A model generated the notes under the pieces. The model saw only the letters and a list, made by a program, of their open reading frames with translations. It was not told the origin of the DNA and did not search any database. Positions 2,879 to 10,718 of a stretch of DNA of 64,000 nt are shown one piece after another. The stretch covers positions 3,349 through 67,348 of the forward strand of contig JANQFA010000095.1 of NCBI GenBank assembly GCA_028278065.1, given 5' to 3'. The position numbers were made by a program, and so were the translations under genes. Every line of letters begins with the position of its first letter. Positions within the stretch are counted from its first letter, which is position 1. Origin of the DNA: Myxococcota bacterium (GTDB lineage: Bacteria; Myxococcota_A; UBA9160; JAFDET01).

Positions 2879-3258
2879 GGTTCCACTCCGCGTGTCGTCC
2901 TAGGCCGACTGTAAGAGACTTGAGAGGAGCTGTCTGCGGCGAAGCAGAGAGCGTCTGCCTCGAACCACGACCGTACAGGCTACTGGAGCTGGCGCGCTCC
3001 CCATCCGCCCGCGCCGATTTGACGACAAGGCGACGGACGCGTTGCATCGCTGCTTCCACGTTGGGCAGGCAATGGCTTTGCCCTCCGAGTCACCCCGGGG
3101 TTGCCACATCGCCACAGCGAGCATCCGTGCAGTCGTTCGCGCGACCCCGCTTGGCTGCGTGAATCAAGCGCTCAGGCATCACCGTGGGCGCATGCGAGCC
3201 GCCCCCTCAGACGGCTTCAGGGAGCGCTAGCTTTCTGTTCACCCCGGATCACGCGTCG

Positions 3259-3738
3259 CTAGGCCGGCCGCATCTTCTCACGGAGAGCCGCGCGAAACTG
3301 AAGCCGCACCGTCTTCGGGCTCTTGAGGTGGTGAGGCTCCCGATTTCGATAGGCCCTAACCTCCGTGTGAGCGTAGTTGTCCCAGTCTGGATCGTGAACC
3401 GGCTCGAAGGAAAAAGTGTCGATCTGTCCCCTGCGTTCCTTCGCCGTCACGACGAACGTGATGTTTCCGGGGATATCGCGCATCCCGAACTTCCAGGCCT
3501 CCCACCTTCGACGGTTGCCAACTATGACGCTTCGGGGCCCGCTGTACTTCGACCGATTTACAGACATATCTGGAAACCGGATCGCCGAGATATTCGGCAA
3601 GCGCTCATACCCATCACCGTCGATCTGATCCGGATCGATAGCGTGGTAGAATTCCTCATCACGTGCGAACCGGCTGTCCGGCCCTCTCCGTCGAAGCCAG
3701 TTAACTGAGGAAGTCGCGAAGTTGATCAATCGCTGCAC
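3259..3738 (-). CDS. Hypothetical protein (159 aa), third gene of a small overlapping three-gene cassette
   Basis: ORF track entry. It overlaps the upstream gene by 29-38 nt (GTG 3738 or TTG 3729). The composition is protein-like, with motifs SVNRSKYSGP and HDPDWDNYAHTEV, plus RNREPH (Rx4H). Third codon positions are AT-rich, unlike the rest of the window. The antisense ORF 3184..3708 looks less protein-like. Confidence 0.6.
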   Translation of the reverse strand: MQRLINFATSSVNWLRRRGPDSRFARDEEFYHAIDPDQIDGDGYERLPNISAIRFPDMSVNRSKYSGPRSVIVGNRRRWEAWKFGMRDIPGNITFVVTAKERRGQIDTFSFEPVHDPDWDNYAHTEVRAYRNREPHHLKSPKTVRLQFRAALREKMRPA

Positions 3739-4213
3739 GCAGCCTGCTCTCTTCGCTCTCGATGCACTCGACGGCAGGCTGGCGCCCCGCTTCGGAGAAG
3801 ACTAGCCCGACCGATCCATCGTTGAGGAACTCGACGGCAGCGTACTTCGAGGGAGCACGGAAGTTAAACGCGACGCCCTCTTCAACGGACGGCGAGATGC
3901 TCCGAGGTCGGAGGTTGGCCGCGAACAGCAGCCGCGTAAAGCACTCGGCAAACAGCAGAGTCCGAGCGCTAGGAGGACTGGCGCCCTGCGTGTCCCAATC
4001 CGGGGGAAGCACAGCCAGTTGTCGCAGCTTGTCGAGCGCAGCCTTCTGCCAGTCGACACCAGGCGCTAGGTCCCGATAGGACGCACTGCCTCGACGAGAA
4101 TCGAAAGACCGAACGCTCAGGATGACATCTCGACGTACGTCCGCGTCGGTCGTCATCTCCGTTAGCGACAACAGCGGCAGGTGGACCTCATGCGTTGCTG
4201 AGGGGCTAGACAC
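3701..4213 (-). CDS. Hypothetical protein (170 aa), middle gene of the cassette
   Basis: ORF track entry. The GTG start at 4213 overlaps the stop of the upstream gene (GTGTCTAG, 8-nt overlap), which suggests translational coupling. It carries the motif LPPDWDTQGASPPSARTLLFAECF. Codon usage is atypical for the window (TCT, TTT, GAT, CGA). Confidence 0.6.
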   Translation of the reverse strand: MSSPSATHEVHLPLLSLTEMTTDADVRRDVILSVRSFDSRRGSASYRDLAPGVDWQKAALDKLRQLAVLPPDWDTQGASPPSARTLLFAECFTRLLFAANLRPRSISPSVEEGVAFNFRAPSKYAAVEFLNDGSVGLVFSEAGRQPAVECIESEESRLRAAIDQLRDFLS

Positions 4214-4556
4214 CGCTATCAGTCCTCGCTGCGTTCAGTTGCTCGATTCTCTTCTCTAGCCAGTCTCTCAACGCGGTGGCCGTCGGGAGACTCAGGATCG
4301 CGGTTACCTCGCACTCACGAACCGGCCCATCGCGACCCAGGCGTTCGTCCGTCAGCTCGTCGCCAACCTGACCGGACGAGACCTCGTGCGTTGTGCGCTG
4401 GGGAATCGGCTGCCGCTCTGCGTAGAGGGTCATCTGGACAAACCCGTGCGGCGTGATGCCGCCGTGAGCACCGTCCACGTGGATCACGCGGTAGTCGGCG
4501 CTCTTGACGAAATGGAAGTTGATCCTCTCGGGGTGGTCAGCCACCTGTTCCTCCAA
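4206..4556 (-). CDS. Hypothetical protein (112-116 aa), first gene of the cassette
   Basis: ORF track entry with a TTG start at 4556. A better start is GTG at 4544, 6 nt after GGAGG. Beta-rich N-terminal half (INFHFVKSADYRVIHVDGAHGGITPHGFVQMTLY) with a C-terminal helix. It is faintly DUF3467-like in layout only, and I make no family call. Confidence 0.6.
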   Translation of the reverse strand: MEEQVADHPERINFHFVKSADYRVIHVDGAHGGITPHGFVQMTLYAERQPIPQRTTHEVSSGQVGDELTDERLGRDGPVRECEVTAILSLPTATALRDWLEKRIEQLNAARTDSGV

Positions 4557-4732: not shown

Positions 4733-4984
4733 GGGGCTGTTCAGGATGCGCCTATATCGGAGAGCGCCGTATCTCGCCCAGGGCATCGCTGTGTGGGGGG
4801 GTACCCCCTTTCGACTCTCCTCCGTGGGGGGGCCGTATAGGGCCGTGGGGCCGTGCTGGGTGGGGCTGGGTGGGGCCCTGTGCGGGCCCCTGGGAGCGCG
4901 CAGACGCAAGCTCGCGCTACTTCTTGCCCTTCCGGGATTCTGGCAGTCTTGGGGTCAGGGGTTCGATCCCCCTCAGCTCCACCA
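4733..4984 (+). ncRNA. tmRNA-like (ssrA?) structured RNA with a tRNA-like 3' end. Alternatively, only the last ~30-40 nt are a tmRNA/tRNA 3' fragment left as an island att site.
   Basis: T-arm AGGGG-TTCGATC-CCCCT (4957-4973), then the 3' acceptor strand CAGCTCC (4974-4980), then ACCA (4981-4984). GGGGCTG at 4733-4739 can pair with the acceptor strand, including a G3:U70 wobble, which is the Ala/tmRNA identity pair. The interior is full of G/C-complementary hairpins (GGGGGGGTACCCCC, GGGGCCCTGTGCGGGCCCC, AGCGCG..CGCGCT). A strong terminator hairpin follows. No cloverleaf can be drawn and no canonical tag ORF was found. About 252 nt is short for a tmRNA. Confidence 0.45.
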
Positions 4985-4993
4985 CTCTCTTCG

Positions 4994-5022
4994 CGGGGTT
5001 GGCGAGATGCTCGCCAACCCCG
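4994..5022. terminator. Bidirectional stem-loop terminator
   Basis: A perfect 12-13 bp GC-rich stem, CGGGGTTGGCGAG / CTCGCCAACCCCG, with a 3-nt loop. It lies 10 nt after the CCA end on the plus strand and 7 nt after the TGA of the convergent giant gene on the minus strand. Confidence 0.6.
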
Positions 5023-5028
5023 TCGTTC

Positions 5029-8000
5029 TCAAGGGCCCGTCCGCCGCAGCTTGAAGACTCCGACGTCCTTGTCGATGTAGACGTCGGCACTCGGCGGATC
5101 GTCGTAGCGCATCCCAAAGCAGCTCCCGCCGCCTCCCGGGTGGAACTGAACGTCGTACGTCTGCGCCCCGATCCCGACCGAGGGCTGGAACGCCGGTATC
5201 GGCCGATCGGAATCGGCCCCGACCTCGGCGCCCTTGGCCACCAGGGTCAACTTCGACTTGCCCGGGGTGGTCGCGTCCGAACGGAGCAGGACGGACCGGA
5301 TACCGTCCGCAGCGGCGGCCTTGTCTACGTAGCGGTAGAGCTTGCCCGGGATCACCTTGATCCAGTTGGGCGACCCCGGGGGGATCGCCAGCTGGGTACG
5401 CAGCGCGTCGTCCGCATAGAAGCAGAGCCCCGCGCCGCCGCCCACGGGGTCACCGAACTCGTTGAAGTCCGTAACTCCACCCCGCAGCCACTTGAAGACC
5501 AGCTTCGCGTTGTCGCCGTTGACCCCGCCGTCCGCCGGCTCGAGGCGATCCTGCATGATCGTCAGGTTGAGGGCGTCGGTCCGACAGGTGGCCGGAACGA
5601 GGGGGCACGCGGGTGCGGCGGCGGACGAGCAGTCCGCACTGCACCCATCGCCGTCGATCTGGTTCCCGTCGTCGCAGGTCTCTCCCGCATTGACGATGCC
5701 GTTTCCGCAGGACGGAAGTGTGCAATTGGGATCGCACGCGTCCCCGCCGGCCAGGTTGCCGTCGTCGCACTCCTCCTGGATCTCCACGGCTCCGTTTCCG
5801 CAGGTCTCCAGATCGCAGGCATCACCGACGCCATCCAGATCGGCGTCGGCCTGCTCCACGTTGGGGGCATCCGGGCAGTTGTCCAATGCGTCCGGCACCT
5901 GATCACGATCCCGATCCGCGACGCCCAGGACGGCGATGTCCTCGACGCACGTGGCGTCGGGGTCGCAGCCCTGTTCGGCGGTGGGCTTGTCCAGGTCGCA
6001 GGTGCGCCCGGTGTCTCGAACGCAGCTGCCGATCGTCGCCTCCGGGTCGGGATCGAAGCAGAACTCGCCGGCACCGCACGTACCCGGCGCTCCAGGTGTG
6101 CATGACGCCGTCGTGTCGACCACGCAACGTCCTTCCGTGACGATGACCTGGTCGCTGCCCTCGCCCGGATCGTCCTCACTCGGGGTTTGCAGCGGATCGC
6201 TGCCCGTCCCGTCGTCGGGATCCGTCACCTCGGCCACCGGCCGCGTCTCGCCGGACACCACGTTGTAGACCTGCACCAGGACGTCGTCCTGGTCGCCGTC
6301 TTCGTTGAGATCCTCGCCCTGGTCTCCCTCGAAGGTGAGGAACCGCACGGTTCTGCTGGAAACCCGGTAGGGATTCCGCGGCTCACACTCGGACAGCCGG
6401 CAGGGAGTGACCGCCTGCCCCGTGTTGAGGAGCTGACCGCCGATCATGTCATACACCTGCAGGCCGTCGTCGCAGCAGTCGCCGTCCCCGTTCAGGTCGC
6501 ACTGGGAGATCGCGACGCAGCCCGCAGGCGCGGAGCAGTCCGGGGAAGGAACCGCCGCATCGCAGAAGTCGAGCTCGTGGCTGCGAAACGCCAGGAGATC
6601 CTCTCCCATCACGAACTCCTCGGCGGGCTGGCGGCGCCCGCTGCCATCCTCGATGGGAAGCAGGCTCAGGGCGGCAGCATCGTAGAGCTGCACGTAGCGG
6701 TCGGCGGCATCGCCATCCGAGGTCGCGTCCAGGCCAGCCTGTTCGGCTTCCGGCGTGATGAACGCCACCAGCTCCCCCGAGACGTCGATCGAATCCGCCG
6801 CCTGACCGACGTTGTCCCAGGAAAACGGCGGAGCGTCGATGTTGGCCGAGCACGGCAGGAACGGCGTCACACCCAAGGGAAGGACGTGAAGCACCCGATC
6901 CGATGCGTCCGCGTCGCCGTTCAGGAACGCCCCGCCCGCGTCGGCCTCCGGCACCAGGCCTGCAATGAAGGTGCCGGACATCGCCACGTCGCTGGCCGCG
7001 CACTGCAGGTTCTGGACGCCACCAGCCGTCGCAAGGTGCACCACCTGATCGTCGATGTCGCCATCACCGTTGAAATTCACACCGCCAGGGCACGCGCCCC
7101 CGCCCCCGGCTCCCTCCGGCCGGAGGAACGCCGCGCTCCCCGCCGCGACGGCGACGCGCCCTGCGGGACACAGGTTCGTCACCACCCCAGGTGGCCCCAC
7201 CGTCGTGTCGAGAGACCTCAAGACGGTGTCGTCGAGGTCTCCGTCGAAGCTCAGATCAGCCCCGAAGTCGCTCGGATCCGGACCGCGGACGAACACGTCC
7301 GAATCCATGTTGCCATCGCCCCCGACCAGGTTGGTTGCTCCGCTGTCGAACACGATCGAGCGACCGTCCGAAGCAAAGGGAGGGACGGCCCTCAGAAAGC
7401 TGGCGGCGTCCGCCTCGTTGCCTGCGGTGTCCAGGCTCATTCGTGTCGTGAGTCCGCTCGCGCGGTCGTGAACGAAGACGTCGTTCACGCCGTTGGTGTC
7501 ACCGTCCACGAGGTTGGTCGCGGCGCTGTAGAACGCGATGAACCGGGAGTCCGGAGACAAGTGAGGCGCCTCGCTCTGCCCGTCCGCCTCTTCGCCTGAC
7601 GAGCCCACGCTGATCCGGGTGGTGGCGATCCCGCCCGGCTCATCGAAGACCCCGTTCTCGTCGGCATCGCGATCATGGAGAAAGATGTCCTGCACCGAGT
7701 TGGTGTCGCCCGCCACGAGGTTGTTCGAGTCGTCGCTGAACACCACGAACCGCCCGTCGCCGGAGATCTGCCCGACCGAGCCCTGATCGTTCCCCTGCTC
7801 GCCGGTCGAGCTCACGCTCACCATGATGATCTCGATCTCTCCGGGGTCGTAGCCATCTCCCTCGTCGTCGAAGATCCCGTCTTCGTCGGCATCGCGATCG
7901 TGGACGAACATGTCGAAGAGACCGTCGGTATCGCCGGCGACGAGATTGGTCGCGAAGCTGCTGAACAAGACGTAGCGGCCGTCGTGAGAGACGCCGTGGC

Positions 8001-10431
8001 CCACCGAACGGTTGTTGCCGCCATTCCCGGCCGCATCGATGCTGATGCGAATCGTCTTGACCTCGCCGGGATCGATGATCCCGTTCCCTTCCCCGTCGAA
8101 GAGCCCGTCTCCGTCCGCGTCTCGGTCGTGAAGGAACGCGTCATCGGGAACGGCGACCAGGCCCCAGTTGCCCTCTCCCGGGGCGAGGTCGTTCGCCCGG
8201 CTCGTGATCACCACGAAGCGGCCGTCGGGCGAGATGTCGGAGGCGAACGAGAAGCCGCCCCCGTCGACGGCCTCGCTTCCATCGGACTGGACGCTCACGC
8301 GAACGGTCGCGATGCCACCCGGCTGGCCCTGCTCATCATAGATGCCGTCCTGGTCGAAGTCGCGGTCGTGAACGAAGGCGTCCCAATCGGCGTTCGTGTC
8401 CCCCGGAACGAGGTCGTCGAAGTCGGCCGAGAAGGCCACGAAGCGACCATCCGCCGCGAATCCGCTTCCCGCAGCACCCACACCGTTGCAACACCCGGGC
8501 CCAAACTCCTCGCCTTCGTCTCCGTTCGAGTCGACACTCACCCGGACGGTCGTGCCGGCTACCCGGTCCCGGATGAACACGTCGCGCACCTGGTTCGTAT
8601 CGCCGGCAACGATGTTGGTGGCGAACGAGGTAAAGGCCAGGTCGCGCCCCCCCCGGCCGAGGAAGCCCGTCGTGCTGAAGTCGTTCCCCTCGCCACCCGC
8701 ATCGGGCAGGCTCAGACGCTCCGTGAGCTGGGTGGCTTCAGCGGCCTCCGGGGTGCGAAAGAAGACGGTGCCGTCGGAGAGCGCGAGCGTCCGGCCGTCG
8801 ATGACGGGGTCGCTGGCGGCGGTGAGCGGGCCGGCAGGCGACAGCTCCCCAACACCAAGGGCGAAGCTCTTCAAGATCGGGTCGAAGACGTTGGCGTTCG
8901 CGTTCGTGTCGGTGTCGCCCTGCCCTGGCTCGGACTCGAGAAACGCCATGACCGACCCCTCGACCGCCACGGCGGGGAAACGGAACGGCCCCTCCTGGGT
9001 CCGCACGGCGGCGCGCCCGTCGCTCCCACCGTCCCCGATGGGCTGAAGGATGCCCGTCGTGCGGTCCCTGAGGGTGACGACGAAATCTCCCGGCTCGCCT
9101 CCCAGAGGGTCCCCGTCGGCATTGCGGTCGACGCCATCCACGTTCTCCGAGATCACGAAGGCGAAGTTGCCTGCGCCCTCCACGAGGCCTTCCAGCGGAA
9201 CCGGATCGTCGAGAACGGCCGTGTACTCCCCTCCGCTACCCAGGAGTACGACCGGCCCGATTCCGGCGTCGTAGCGGTCGCTGAAATCGAAGAGCTCATT
9301 GCTGCAGACGCTGGAGCTGCACTCGCCGTCGACCGTGCACGCCTTGCCCTCGTCGTCACCACCCACGCAGCCGCGTCGCGCGATCCGGATCACGCCTCGG
9401 GGTGCGTCCACCGATCCGAACAGCTCGGCGTCACTCACGGCCGGGTTGGCCAGGGCCGTGAAGACGGGAGGCAGGATGATCCCGCCGGGCGAGTGGGAAG
9501 AGATGAATCCATCGCCGGGGATCGTGACGGGCTGACCCGGAAGGTCCGTATCGGCATCCACATTCGTGGCTCCCCGGGCGAGCTGGGGGATCGGAACCCC
9601 GCCGATGCGCAGCAGGATCCCCGTGTAGTCCATCGGCGCCAGGATGTTGCCCGCAGCGTCCGTGGTGAAGTGCACCTCCGTAATGCCGGGGTTCGCGATC
9701 ATCGCCTCGATGTCGTTGGGGGGCGGCAACGCCACGAAGTGCCCGAACCGTTCGGCCAGATCGGCAGGGCTGGTTCGACAGGTACCGTCGAGACGGAAGA
9801 GCTCGTCCACGCAGGCGACCACGCCATGGGTCGACGTGTCTCCACCCAGATCGGCGCAGCGCTGGGTAGCCAGCCCGCACTGCAGCGGCGCGTTCCGCCG
9901 CGTCACGACGATCTTGGCCGGTCCGGCGAGAGTTCGGTCGTCGTTCACGCCACCGAGCCGATCATCGCTGTCGGGGAAGCGGAACCGGAGTTCGTTCAGG
10001 CTGGGAACGACCAGATCGATGGATCCTCCGGCGTTCAACTCGACGCACTCGGCGGTACCGCCGGGCCCGAGATCGGTATTGCAGTTGCTCAGGTCGAGGC
10101 CGGCACAGCTCTCCGCAAGGACGATGGCATTGGCTGCACCGTTGGGAGGCGTGAAGATCACCGACACGCGGTAGTCGTCCGCCGCGTCGCCATCCAGGTC
10201 GAGATCGACGAAGCCGGTGGACGTCTCGTCGCAGGCCGGCGGCCTCACGGCGACGCTGACGAAGTCATCGGGACTGGCAAAGGGCCGATTGAGGCTTCCC
10301 AGCGCACCGCGGAAATCACTCGACGCGGCGGGGATCACGTCGCAGATCGCGGAGGCATCAGGCGCGAAGGCCAGGAGCACGAGGGCGACGAGAAGCGAAC
10401 ACCTGGCGGAGCGAGCGAGCGGGCGATCCAT
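5029..10431 (-). CDS. Giant secreted multidomain protein (~1800 aa): a 7-blade PD40/TolB-like beta-propeller with Ca-binding-type inserts, thrombospondin type-3-like repeats and Myxococcus-type Cys-rich repeats
   Basis: ORF track 5029..10479. ATG at 10431 follows GGAGG and gives the signal peptide [28 protein letters not shown]. There are seven repeats of the type FxxFxSxAxNLVxGDTNxxxDVFxHDR. [11 protein letters not shown] inserts are present. [27 protein letters not shown] is TSP3-like. CGNGxxExxEeCDDGN..DGCsxxC occurs twice. Confidence 0.9.
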
Positions 10432-10718
10432 GGAGCCTCCACGCAGCATATCCGGGACAGCCGGCTGCACGGCGTTCAACGAAAGAGCATCGGGCGCTCC
10501 TCCTGTATATCACACAGCTCGGTGTAAGGACGTGAAGTATTTCACACGTGCCCTGCTCGCCCGAACGCCGTGTCCCGCGGAGCAACGATCCGTCTCCGGG
10601 TAATCACCGAGCCCCCCCAAGGGGCCAGATCCACCGGCGATGGGAATGGTGCCCACCTGATGATCTACAATCCGGCGGCCTGTTCACCGGACCCCTGGTT
10701 CGACGTCGTGGAAGGGGC

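Follow-up and report, generated by a model that had tools for sequence, protein, structure and literature searches.

We analysed a 64,000-nucleotide (nt) stretch of DNA from a Myxococcota bacterium (GenBank assembly GCA_028278065.1, contig JANQFA010000095.1, positions 3,349 to 67,348 of the forward strand), hereafter the window, and focused on a cluster of three small genes, A, B and C, encoded on its minus strand. The preliminary description of this region, made from the sequence alone, had reported three minus-strand open reading frames (ORFs) that overlap by 8 nt between A and B and by 29-38 nt between B and C. All three are present with these overlaps (Table 1).

Layout and reality of the three genes

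Two start codons are available for gene A. A GGAGGA Shine-Dalgarno sequence sits 5 nt 5' of the GTG at 4544, and a public record (P0005) calls the gene as a protein of 112 amino acids (aa); judged by these signals, the 112-aa form from GTG 4544 is therefore the most likely one. The GTG start of B, embedded in the end of A, is preceded by GAGGA 9 nt upstream. Gene C can start at GTG 3738 or TTG 3729 only, as no further in-frame start is met before Met58. In the NCBI annotation of this contig, C begins at Met86 and is 74 aa long (P0142), so that the SVNR motif and the rest of the conserved N-terminal half are lost. A length of 159 aa is backed by the Logan call and by all homologues. A call of 74 aa leaves the family hidden from annotation-based searches.

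Codon-position GC content tracks the frame of A, then of B and then of C along the region. Antisense open frames of 117-181 aa also cover B and C in the window, where the DNA has a GC content of 63%, and DNA of this composition yields long ORFs by chance. Homologues of A, B and C span loci with GC contents from 0.39 to 0.73, which allows the antisense frames to be followed across compositions. In loci at GC 0.63-0.73 they reach 181-249 aa. In L020 (GC 0.50) and L033 (GC 0.39) the longest one measures only 47-58 aa, and in L038 (GC 0.39) 64-80 aa, while B and C stay intact in all three. The antisense ORFs over B and C are thus an artefact of GC composition. The plus-strand ORF at 3184-3708, which the preliminary description had named as a possible conserved alternative, is ruled out as a true gene both by codon-position GC and by the scaling of antisense length with GC.

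B and C form a conserved core behind an exchangeable first gene

Hidden Markov models of the A, B and C families were scanned over fetched loci, and the neighbouring ORFs were compared all-against-all by BLAST. No family other than A, B and C was shared by unrelated loci in this comparison. In all 21 non-redundant loci with upstream sequence, B immediately precedes C; these loci come from Deltaproteobacteria, Cyanobacteria, Acidobacteriota (Bryobacterales and Thermoanaerobaculia) and metagenomes. In 19 of 20 loci, homology to C sets in no earlier than 13 nt ahead of the end of the B stop codon and no later than 19 nt beyond it, indicating that the two genes overlap or abut; the exception, L023, gave a fragmentary hit only. 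Gene calls of A and B overlap by 1-8 nt in L002, L008, L009, L012, L018 and L020. The complete order A-B-C is retained in 10 independent loci (Deltaproteobacteria, Cyanobacteria and uncultured bacteria), so that the conserved linkage, whose absence would have spoken against a common system, is in fact there.

The position in front of B-C is variable. It is taken by a member of the A family in 10 loci, by a DUF6941 protein in L017 and by unrelated proteins of 237-285 aa in L026/L031 and L032/L033/L036, and it is empty in L025, L027 and L034, where B-C lie between rnhA and cysS. A, in turn, also heads an unrelated pair, composed of a 150-160 aa protein (B') and a DUF7689 protein, in L012/L013 and in the IMG/VR contig L043. 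With B-C invariant, the first slot variable and A found in another cassette, the unit is a two-gene core with a swappable first gene. The earlier notion of a three-gene system holds to the extent that the genes are tightly coupled and form a conserved, linked module; it does not hold as a fixed triad, because the first gene is swapped or absent.

The proteins that fill these slots were also compared with each other. By hhalign, A shows no relation to the DUF6941 protein or to the first-slot proteins of 237-285 aa, and the B'/DUF7689 pair of L012 shows none to B and C that would mark it as a divergent form of them. In L014-L016, an IS3-family element follows A in place of the B'-DUF7689 pair. 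First-slot proteins of 272-285 aa (L032:2282-3100, L033:2394-3251 and L036:2438-3271) open with an NPP[IV].E..C...F motif, which may be that of the NCBIfam TIGR04255 family. The DUF7689 protein of the A-headed cassette carries an NCIAWA motif and looks cysteine-peptidase-like by eye, and in L043 the cassette adjoins a 531-aa ORF that by eye resembles a terminase large subunit. In the literature we found no functional information on DUF6941, DUF7689 or TIGR04255, and no publication that names TIGR04255.

Table 1. Features of the window (positions in the whole stretch) and of homologous loci
Feature	Position	Strand	Details	Basis
Gene A	4206..4556	minus	116 aa from TTG 4556; 112 aa from GTG 4544	ORF list, sequence
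Gene B	3701..4213	minus	170 aa	ORF list
Gene C	3259..3738	minus	159 aa from GTG 3738; alternative start TTG 3729	ORF list
A/B overlap GTGTCTAG	4206..4213	minus	8 nt; GTG start of B inside end of A	
B/C overlap	3701..3738	minus	38 nt from GTG 3738, 29 nt from TTG 3729	
Conserved B domain	3704..4042	minus	residues about 58-170, about 110 aa	
C motif PDMSVNRSKYS	3541..3573	minus	residues 56-66; near-invariant P56, S59, R62	
C motif HDPDWDNYAHTEVRAY	3349..3396	minus	residues 115-130; H115, P117, N121, invariant H124, E126	
C as annotated by NCBI (P0142)	3259-3480	minus	74 aa	NCBI record
NTPase gene	2-2878	minus	starts at 2878, 380 nt after C	
tmRNA-like fragment	4862-4984	plus	acceptor-stem halves, T-arm, CCA	Rfam RF00023
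tmRNA_permuted, second partial match	4957-5001			
ORF unrelated to the cassette	5029-10479	minus	1816 aa	
L002			Deltaproteobacteria metagenome-assembled genome; A/B/C = 118/197/153 aa	
L008			A/B/C = 135/184/147 aa	
L009			A/B/C = 116/177/160 aa	
L018			A/B/C = 141/185/152 aa	
L020			A/B/C = 114/167/135 aa	
L023			Cyanobacteria metagenome-assembled genome; A-B-C order kept	
L024, L037 and L048			A-B-C order kept; 124/198/143 aa in L048	
A-B'-DUF7689 cassette	L012:2430-3754, L013, L043:3805-5022			

The three proteins and their relation to PDC-M32

C belongs to a large family. Searching with a four-sequence profile gave 1212 cluster representatives (50% identity) at E <= 1e-3, of which 626 reached E <= 1e-10. 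Of the 150 best that were listed, the majority stand alone as proteins of 135-185 aa. Homologues are 58-29% identical to the window copy and share many invariant polar residues. In an alignment of 140 sequences His124 is invariant, and F24, E28, L30, P56, S59, R62, P90, H115, P117, N121, E126 and R149 are conserved in at least 90%. The motifs PDMSVNRSKYS and HDP..NYAH[ST]EV are kept in homologues, in line with the conserved appearance that had been attributed to them from the single sequence. A further motif, an Rx4H (RNREPH) proposed as either HEPN-like or coincidental, turns out to be coincidental: it is replaced by LNQTHF in L008 and by RNGQRY in P0001 and is absent from the near-invariant columns of the 140 sequences. 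Because Rx4H is not conserved, C is not read as a HEPN protein; its model is also mainly beta, as opposed to the all-alpha HEPN domain.

The AlphaFold2 model of C built from the 140-sequence alignment (predicted local distance difference test, pLDDT, 91.4; predicted template modelling score, pTM, 0.84) displays six beta strands and a C-terminal helix, with a low-confidence N-terminal helix present only in close relatives. An earlier model from 4 sequences had a pLDDT of 53 and was discarded. No member of the C family matches Pfam, the family profile finds no PDB sequence, and there is no BFVD match for C. We regard C as a probable enzyme for which no relative of known structure can be recognised, and the modelled fold is possibly new. 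The constellation of S59, R62, H115, N121, H124 and E126 suggests an enzyme that would act on a phosphate-bearing substrate, through phosphate or nucleotide chemistry, and our guess would be a metal-independent RNase-like or nucleotide-modifying activity. Several enzyme classes were set aside by eye, namely deaminases (HxE present, PCxxC missing), 2H phosphoesterases (no HxT/S pair) and HNH enzymes (companion motifs missing). Placement of C among the ADP-ribosyltransferase/RES proteins, which have a split-beta-sheet fold with an R/H-S-E triad, is kept as a low-probability lead.

In B, the N-terminal 55-100 residues are unalignable among homologues (about residues 1-55 in the window protein) and by eye rich in S, T, R and P; this fast-evolving segment is, in our judgement, probably disordered. 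The remainder forms the conserved domain, with the motifs L..L..L...WD..GA.PP and PS.EGG..I.F...KYA.VE..N.G. The first of these covers the sequence around LPPDWDTQGA that had been singled out earlier, and its WD..GA.PP part is conserved in homologues. W73, P81, P103, G113, F118, A125 and E128 are invariant, and L66, L69, D74, A78, P108, S109 and N131 are conserved in at least 90%. Homologues of B are 41-23% identical to the window copy, and the conserved positions are mostly W, P, G, F and A. B has no Pfam or PDB match. A DNA-binding domain (helix-turn-helix, ribbon-helix-helix or AbrB) was detected in neither B nor A in Pfam at E up to 10, and profile searches of the PDB were likewise negative.

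A B domain was also seen on its own in a virus. The IMG/VR viral contig L042 (355,825 bp, GC 0.31) encodes a 104-aa protein (L042:3890-4204) that consists of the B domain alone (42 bits) and contains KYADIECFNDG. The 4 kb to each side of this gene contain no C homologue. The protein is possibly an antitoxin mimic or an anti-defence protein.

For A, a 15-sequence alignment shows S15, E43, P48, R76 and E77 as invariant, and the many invariant charged residues are listed as K14, S15, R19, D24, E43, R44, R76 and E77. Matches to DUF3467 are sub-threshold and limited to 2 of 9 members (E 0.018), and the only publication found to mention DUF3467 is unrelated. The family profile has no hit in the PDB. 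We propose that A is accessory and that the B-C core functions without requiring it.

The closest relative of the core that we found is PDC-M32, a candidate phage-defence pair predicted by 'guilt-by-embedding' in known defence systems (10.1101/2024.01.29.577857). The PADLOC profile PDC-M32A matches 10 of 12 B homologues at profile positions 263-344 of 375, with a best E of 7.8e-7. Window B matches these positions only, at E 0.002, and window C has no match in PADLOC. Apart from a single PDC-M32B match (E 0.019), PADLOC returned scattered noise on the 140 C-family members. A tblastn search with the B domain led to a 377-aa protein on a Rhodococcus plasmid, of which the last 100 residues align; hhalign of the B domain with residues 264-363 of this protein gave 96.3% and E 1.8e-9. 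By the same method A shows no relation to the N-terminus of the M32A-like protein.

On the Rhodococcus plasmid, the 377-aa gene and the 143-aa gene downstream of it share 8 nt. Homologous M32-like pairs in the same arrangement are found on three further plasmids, of Rhizobium, Limnohabitans and Sinomonas (L044-L047 including Rhodococcus). The Limnohabitans pair lies between RelE/ParE and VapBC loci, and the Sinomonas pair near a type I restriction R subunit. Among the four small M32B-like plasmid proteins, E.L.R and F.P motifs are shared, and S..R and a His are invariant. Alignment of the C family with an M32B-like profile by hhalign gave 74.4% and E 2.7e-5 over 85 columns, with E.L[YW]R, S..R and His in the same order, and H124 of C aligns with the invariant His of the M32B-like proteins.

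These profile alignments indicate homology between the C-terminal domain of B and the last 100 residues of M32A, and a probable, distant homology of C to M32B without membership of that family. At the level of sequence, the B-C pair is a distant, shorter variant of PDC-M32, with no membership by PADLOC's own profiles. No known fold or family is recognised for the proteins. The statement that none belongs to a recognisable family is accordingly kept with regard to the databases, as window A, B and C have no significant match in Pfam or NCBIfam and A, B and C from three loci have none in PHROGs; it is amended in that B and C are distant relatives of PDC-M32A and PDC-M32B.

Genomic setting, proposed function and known systems

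The window copy of the cassette lies in a stretch of lower GC content (0.60-0.65, versus 0.67-0.69 to its right, with the shift near 4900). This stretch ends at a fragment resembling transfer-messenger RNA (tmRNA), which scores 30.9 bits with the Rfam model, below the gathering score of 47, and is accompanied by a second partial match (Table 1). ARAGORN finds no tRNA or tmRNA gene in the whole window. The Logan contig L001 also stops at about window position 4852. We infer that the fragment marks the distal end of an island inserted at ssrA. Signs of mobility accompany other copies as well, with an integrase beside the copy in L003, insertion sequence (IS) elements in L012 and L014, and HTH_17 and DUF3631 genes beside the copy in L009, a setting that we take for an integrative element. 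In L027 (3237-3733) and L040 (1189-1595) a frameshift divides C over two frames, with the upstream B intact; either the putative effector is decaying or the assembly is in error.

Two further observations concern the surroundings. Downstream of B-C in L032 (4458-6822), a gene whose product by eye resembles DUF1156-type DNA methylases is followed by direct repeats translating to GTPPRAWGQ / RNTPTSMGTT, which by eye look CRISPR-like. In the window, the ORF of 1816 aa is unrelated to the cassette; by eye it displays a signal-peptide-like N-terminus, Asp-rich D.D.DG repeats and C-terminal Cys-rich CDDGN repeats, and is presumably typical of the large secreted or adhesin-like proteins of Myxococcota-type genomes.

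Downstream of C, on the same strand, lies the gene of a large nucleoside triphosphatase (NTPase). It is complete in L001 (L001:1974-6842), where it encodes 1622 aa and is followed by a 251-aa gene. The protein matches PADLOC PDC-M54A at 8.5e-19, has weak STAND/AAA Pfam matches and contains the P-loop GDAGSGKS. Weak HEAT-repeat matches occur in the full-length L001 protein near residue 1260-1300, and the N-terminal 270 aa, its putative 'nuclease' part, have no sequence relative in the PDB. The preliminary description had left two options, an accessory module of this nuclease-NTPase or an independent system. Adjacency on the same strand and the PDC-M54A match would suit a cassette that modulates or extends a STAND-type NTPase, and so would the L019/L020 lineage, in which a 1037-aa AAA_16-TPR-BTAD protein lies directly downstream of C (L019:593-3706 / L020:4339-5277). 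However, this ATPase has no homology to the window NTPase at BLAST E 1e-4, no homologue of the latter occurs beside B-C in the other loci examined, and in the window 380 nt separate the two genes. As the NTPase is not conserved beside B-C, the cassette is independent of it. The neighbourhoods largely refute an accessory role, which we regard as very improbable. The window and L019/L020 remain two loci with an unrelated large ATPase after C, which could be chance in defence islands.

We favour the view, with a rough probability of 45%, that A-B-C is a self-contained toxin-antitoxin-like or abortive-infection cassette at the edge of the lower-GC island. The effector role would fall to C, a small enzyme built mostly of beta strands. 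B would be made just before C from the same transcript, bind C through its conserved domain of about 110 aa and keep it inactive, with the N-terminal segment of B as a labile or sensing part. Once B is lost or displaced, as might happen when a phage infects or the element disappears, C would be released and would arrest the cell. A would act as an exchangeable chaperone or adaptor, or as a regulator of the pair. Toxicity of C, its neutralisation by B, the role of A and an anti-phage effect are all inferred from the genes.

Several lines of evidence argue for such a conflict cassette. B and C co-occur in the same order, overlapping or abutting, in every non-redundant locus, and two-gene versions exist (L025, L027 and L034). 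Their conservation is asymmetric, with B more divergent than C and unalignable at its N-terminus, and C is the gene found frameshifted next to an intact B. The settings are mobile or hypervariable in the window island and in L003, L009, L012 and L014. The homology to PDC-M32, along with the toxin-antitoxin and restriction surroundings of the M32-like plasmid pairs, points the same way, as does the viral B domain that stands without C, as would be expected of an antitoxin mimic. Finally, the first gene is modular, with A heading the B'-DUF7689 cassette as well, including its copy on a viral contig. The earlier suggestion of a toxin-antitoxin or sensor-effector module stays the best reading.

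A number of points weigh against this interpretation. The literature yielded a functional test for neither the B-C family nor PDC-M32, and the link between C and PDC-M32B, a matter of profile comparison, has a probability of only 74% with a profile of four sequences. B appears devoid of a recognisable DNA-binding domain, unlike most type II antitoxins, and the viral B domain is a single case. The invariant charged residues of A fit an enzyme or a nucleic-acid binder at least as well as a chaperone. A Foldseek search of the C model against the PDB gave a best E of 0.24 and no known toxin fold, C was found neither in the plasmid and phage collections searched with tblastn nor in IMG/VR by pattern scan, and some loci lie among housekeeping genes without a mobile or defence neighbour (L048 near surE, rpiA and tal-pgi; L023/L024 after chlH; L025 at the rnhA-cysS site). 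The lack of a known toxin fold, the absence from these collections and the housekeeping surroundings would suit a non-conflict operon, in which a small enzyme, C, and its assembly or regulatory partner, B, serve RNA or nucleotide metabolism or a stress response. Yet the neighbours are never the same between unrelated loci, which leaves such an operon without a pathway context, and the pair occurs in unrelated phyla and genomic positions, resembling insertion more than vertical inheritance. The C pseudogenes of L027 and L040, the integrase and IS contexts of some loci, and the homology of B and C to a pair picked up as embedded in defence systems also speak against a housekeeping role, which we consider quite unlikely.

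A different division of labour is conceivable within a defence system, with the first gene as a phage sensor, B as an adaptor or scaffold and not a labile antidote, and C inactive until triggered. The exchange of the first gene between unrelated families while B-C are retained would be expected of a sensor, and A serves a second effector pair, B' and DUF7689. PDC-M32A fuses the B domain to a further N-terminal region of about 260 aa, and the missing DNA-binding domain of B is also compatible with a scaffold. Nevertheless, L025 and L034 have B-C and no first gene, indicating that a separate sensor is not obligatory, and there is no evidence for what would be sensed. The frameshifted C and the orphan phage B domain fit the antidote model slightly better. 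A sensor-effector system is unlikely in our estimate, and we retain the toxin-antitoxin-like or abortive-infection cassette as the preferred interpretation.

We hypothesize, as a more far-reaching and rather doubtful proposal, that conflict modules of two proteins, B and C, make up a large family of over 1200 clusters (50% identity), drawn mostly from uncultured bacteria. C would have an undescribed fold with a Ser/Arg/His/Glu active site and, together with PDC-M32, the modules would form a new toxin-neutraliser or defence superfamily, in which the first gene tunes triggering and phages counter with stand-alone B domains. Neither Pfam, the PDB nor the literature covers the C family, with its roughly 1200 representative clusters. 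Should C prove to be a toxin or a defence effector, the activities known from toxin-antitoxin and phage-defence systems would gain a new enzymatic one. The link of this mostly metagenomic family to PDC-M32, which was reported in genome surveys, provides a domain map composed of a putative neutraliser domain and an effector with candidate catalytic residues. The swappable first gene and the jumbo-phage copy of the B domain offer leads on triggering and counter-defence, respectively.

An overlapping conflict cassette is in itself of a known kind, and its nearest relative is the uncharacterised catalogue entry PDC-M32; not described before are the protein families, the arrangement with three genes and the fold of C, which is possibly new. 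With type II toxin-antitoxin systems, B-C share the organisation as a small, co-directional, overlapping gene pair in which the upstream B evolves faster than the downstream, enzyme-like C. Their scattered taxonomic distribution, the mobile contexts of some loci and the decay of C in others are also alike. In contrast to those systems, no DNA-binding domain is detected in B, and B and C are in no known toxin or antitoxin family.

Toxin-antitoxin-chaperone (TAC) and omega-epsilon-zeta systems likewise contain a third small, modular gene. The SecB-like chaperones of TAC systems are shared among HigBA, MqsRA and HicAB modules, and A is similarly common to two unrelated downstream pairs. Unlike the chaperone gene of TAC, A comes first in the operon and not last, and it has no sequence similarity to SecB (hhalign 0.2% against E. 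coli SecB, and no PDB hit), so that a SecB-like chaperone has no sequence support.

The comparison with PDC-M32 is the closest one. M32A, of about 375 aa, has an N-terminal region of about 260 aa that is missing from B, and the invariant His is followed by an acidic residue at +2 in C (HSE) and at +4 in the M32B-like proteins (H...D). The additional first gene A has no place in PDC-M32, and the window proteins fall below PADLOC system detection (B at E 0.002, no hit for C). Despite these differences, both pairs follow the same gene order, with the larger gene first and a small overlap between them, matching the adjacent or overlapping arrangement of B and C in 21 of 21 loci, and C and M32B, the latter of about 140 aa, have the E.L[YW]R, [AF].P, S..R and His motifs in common.

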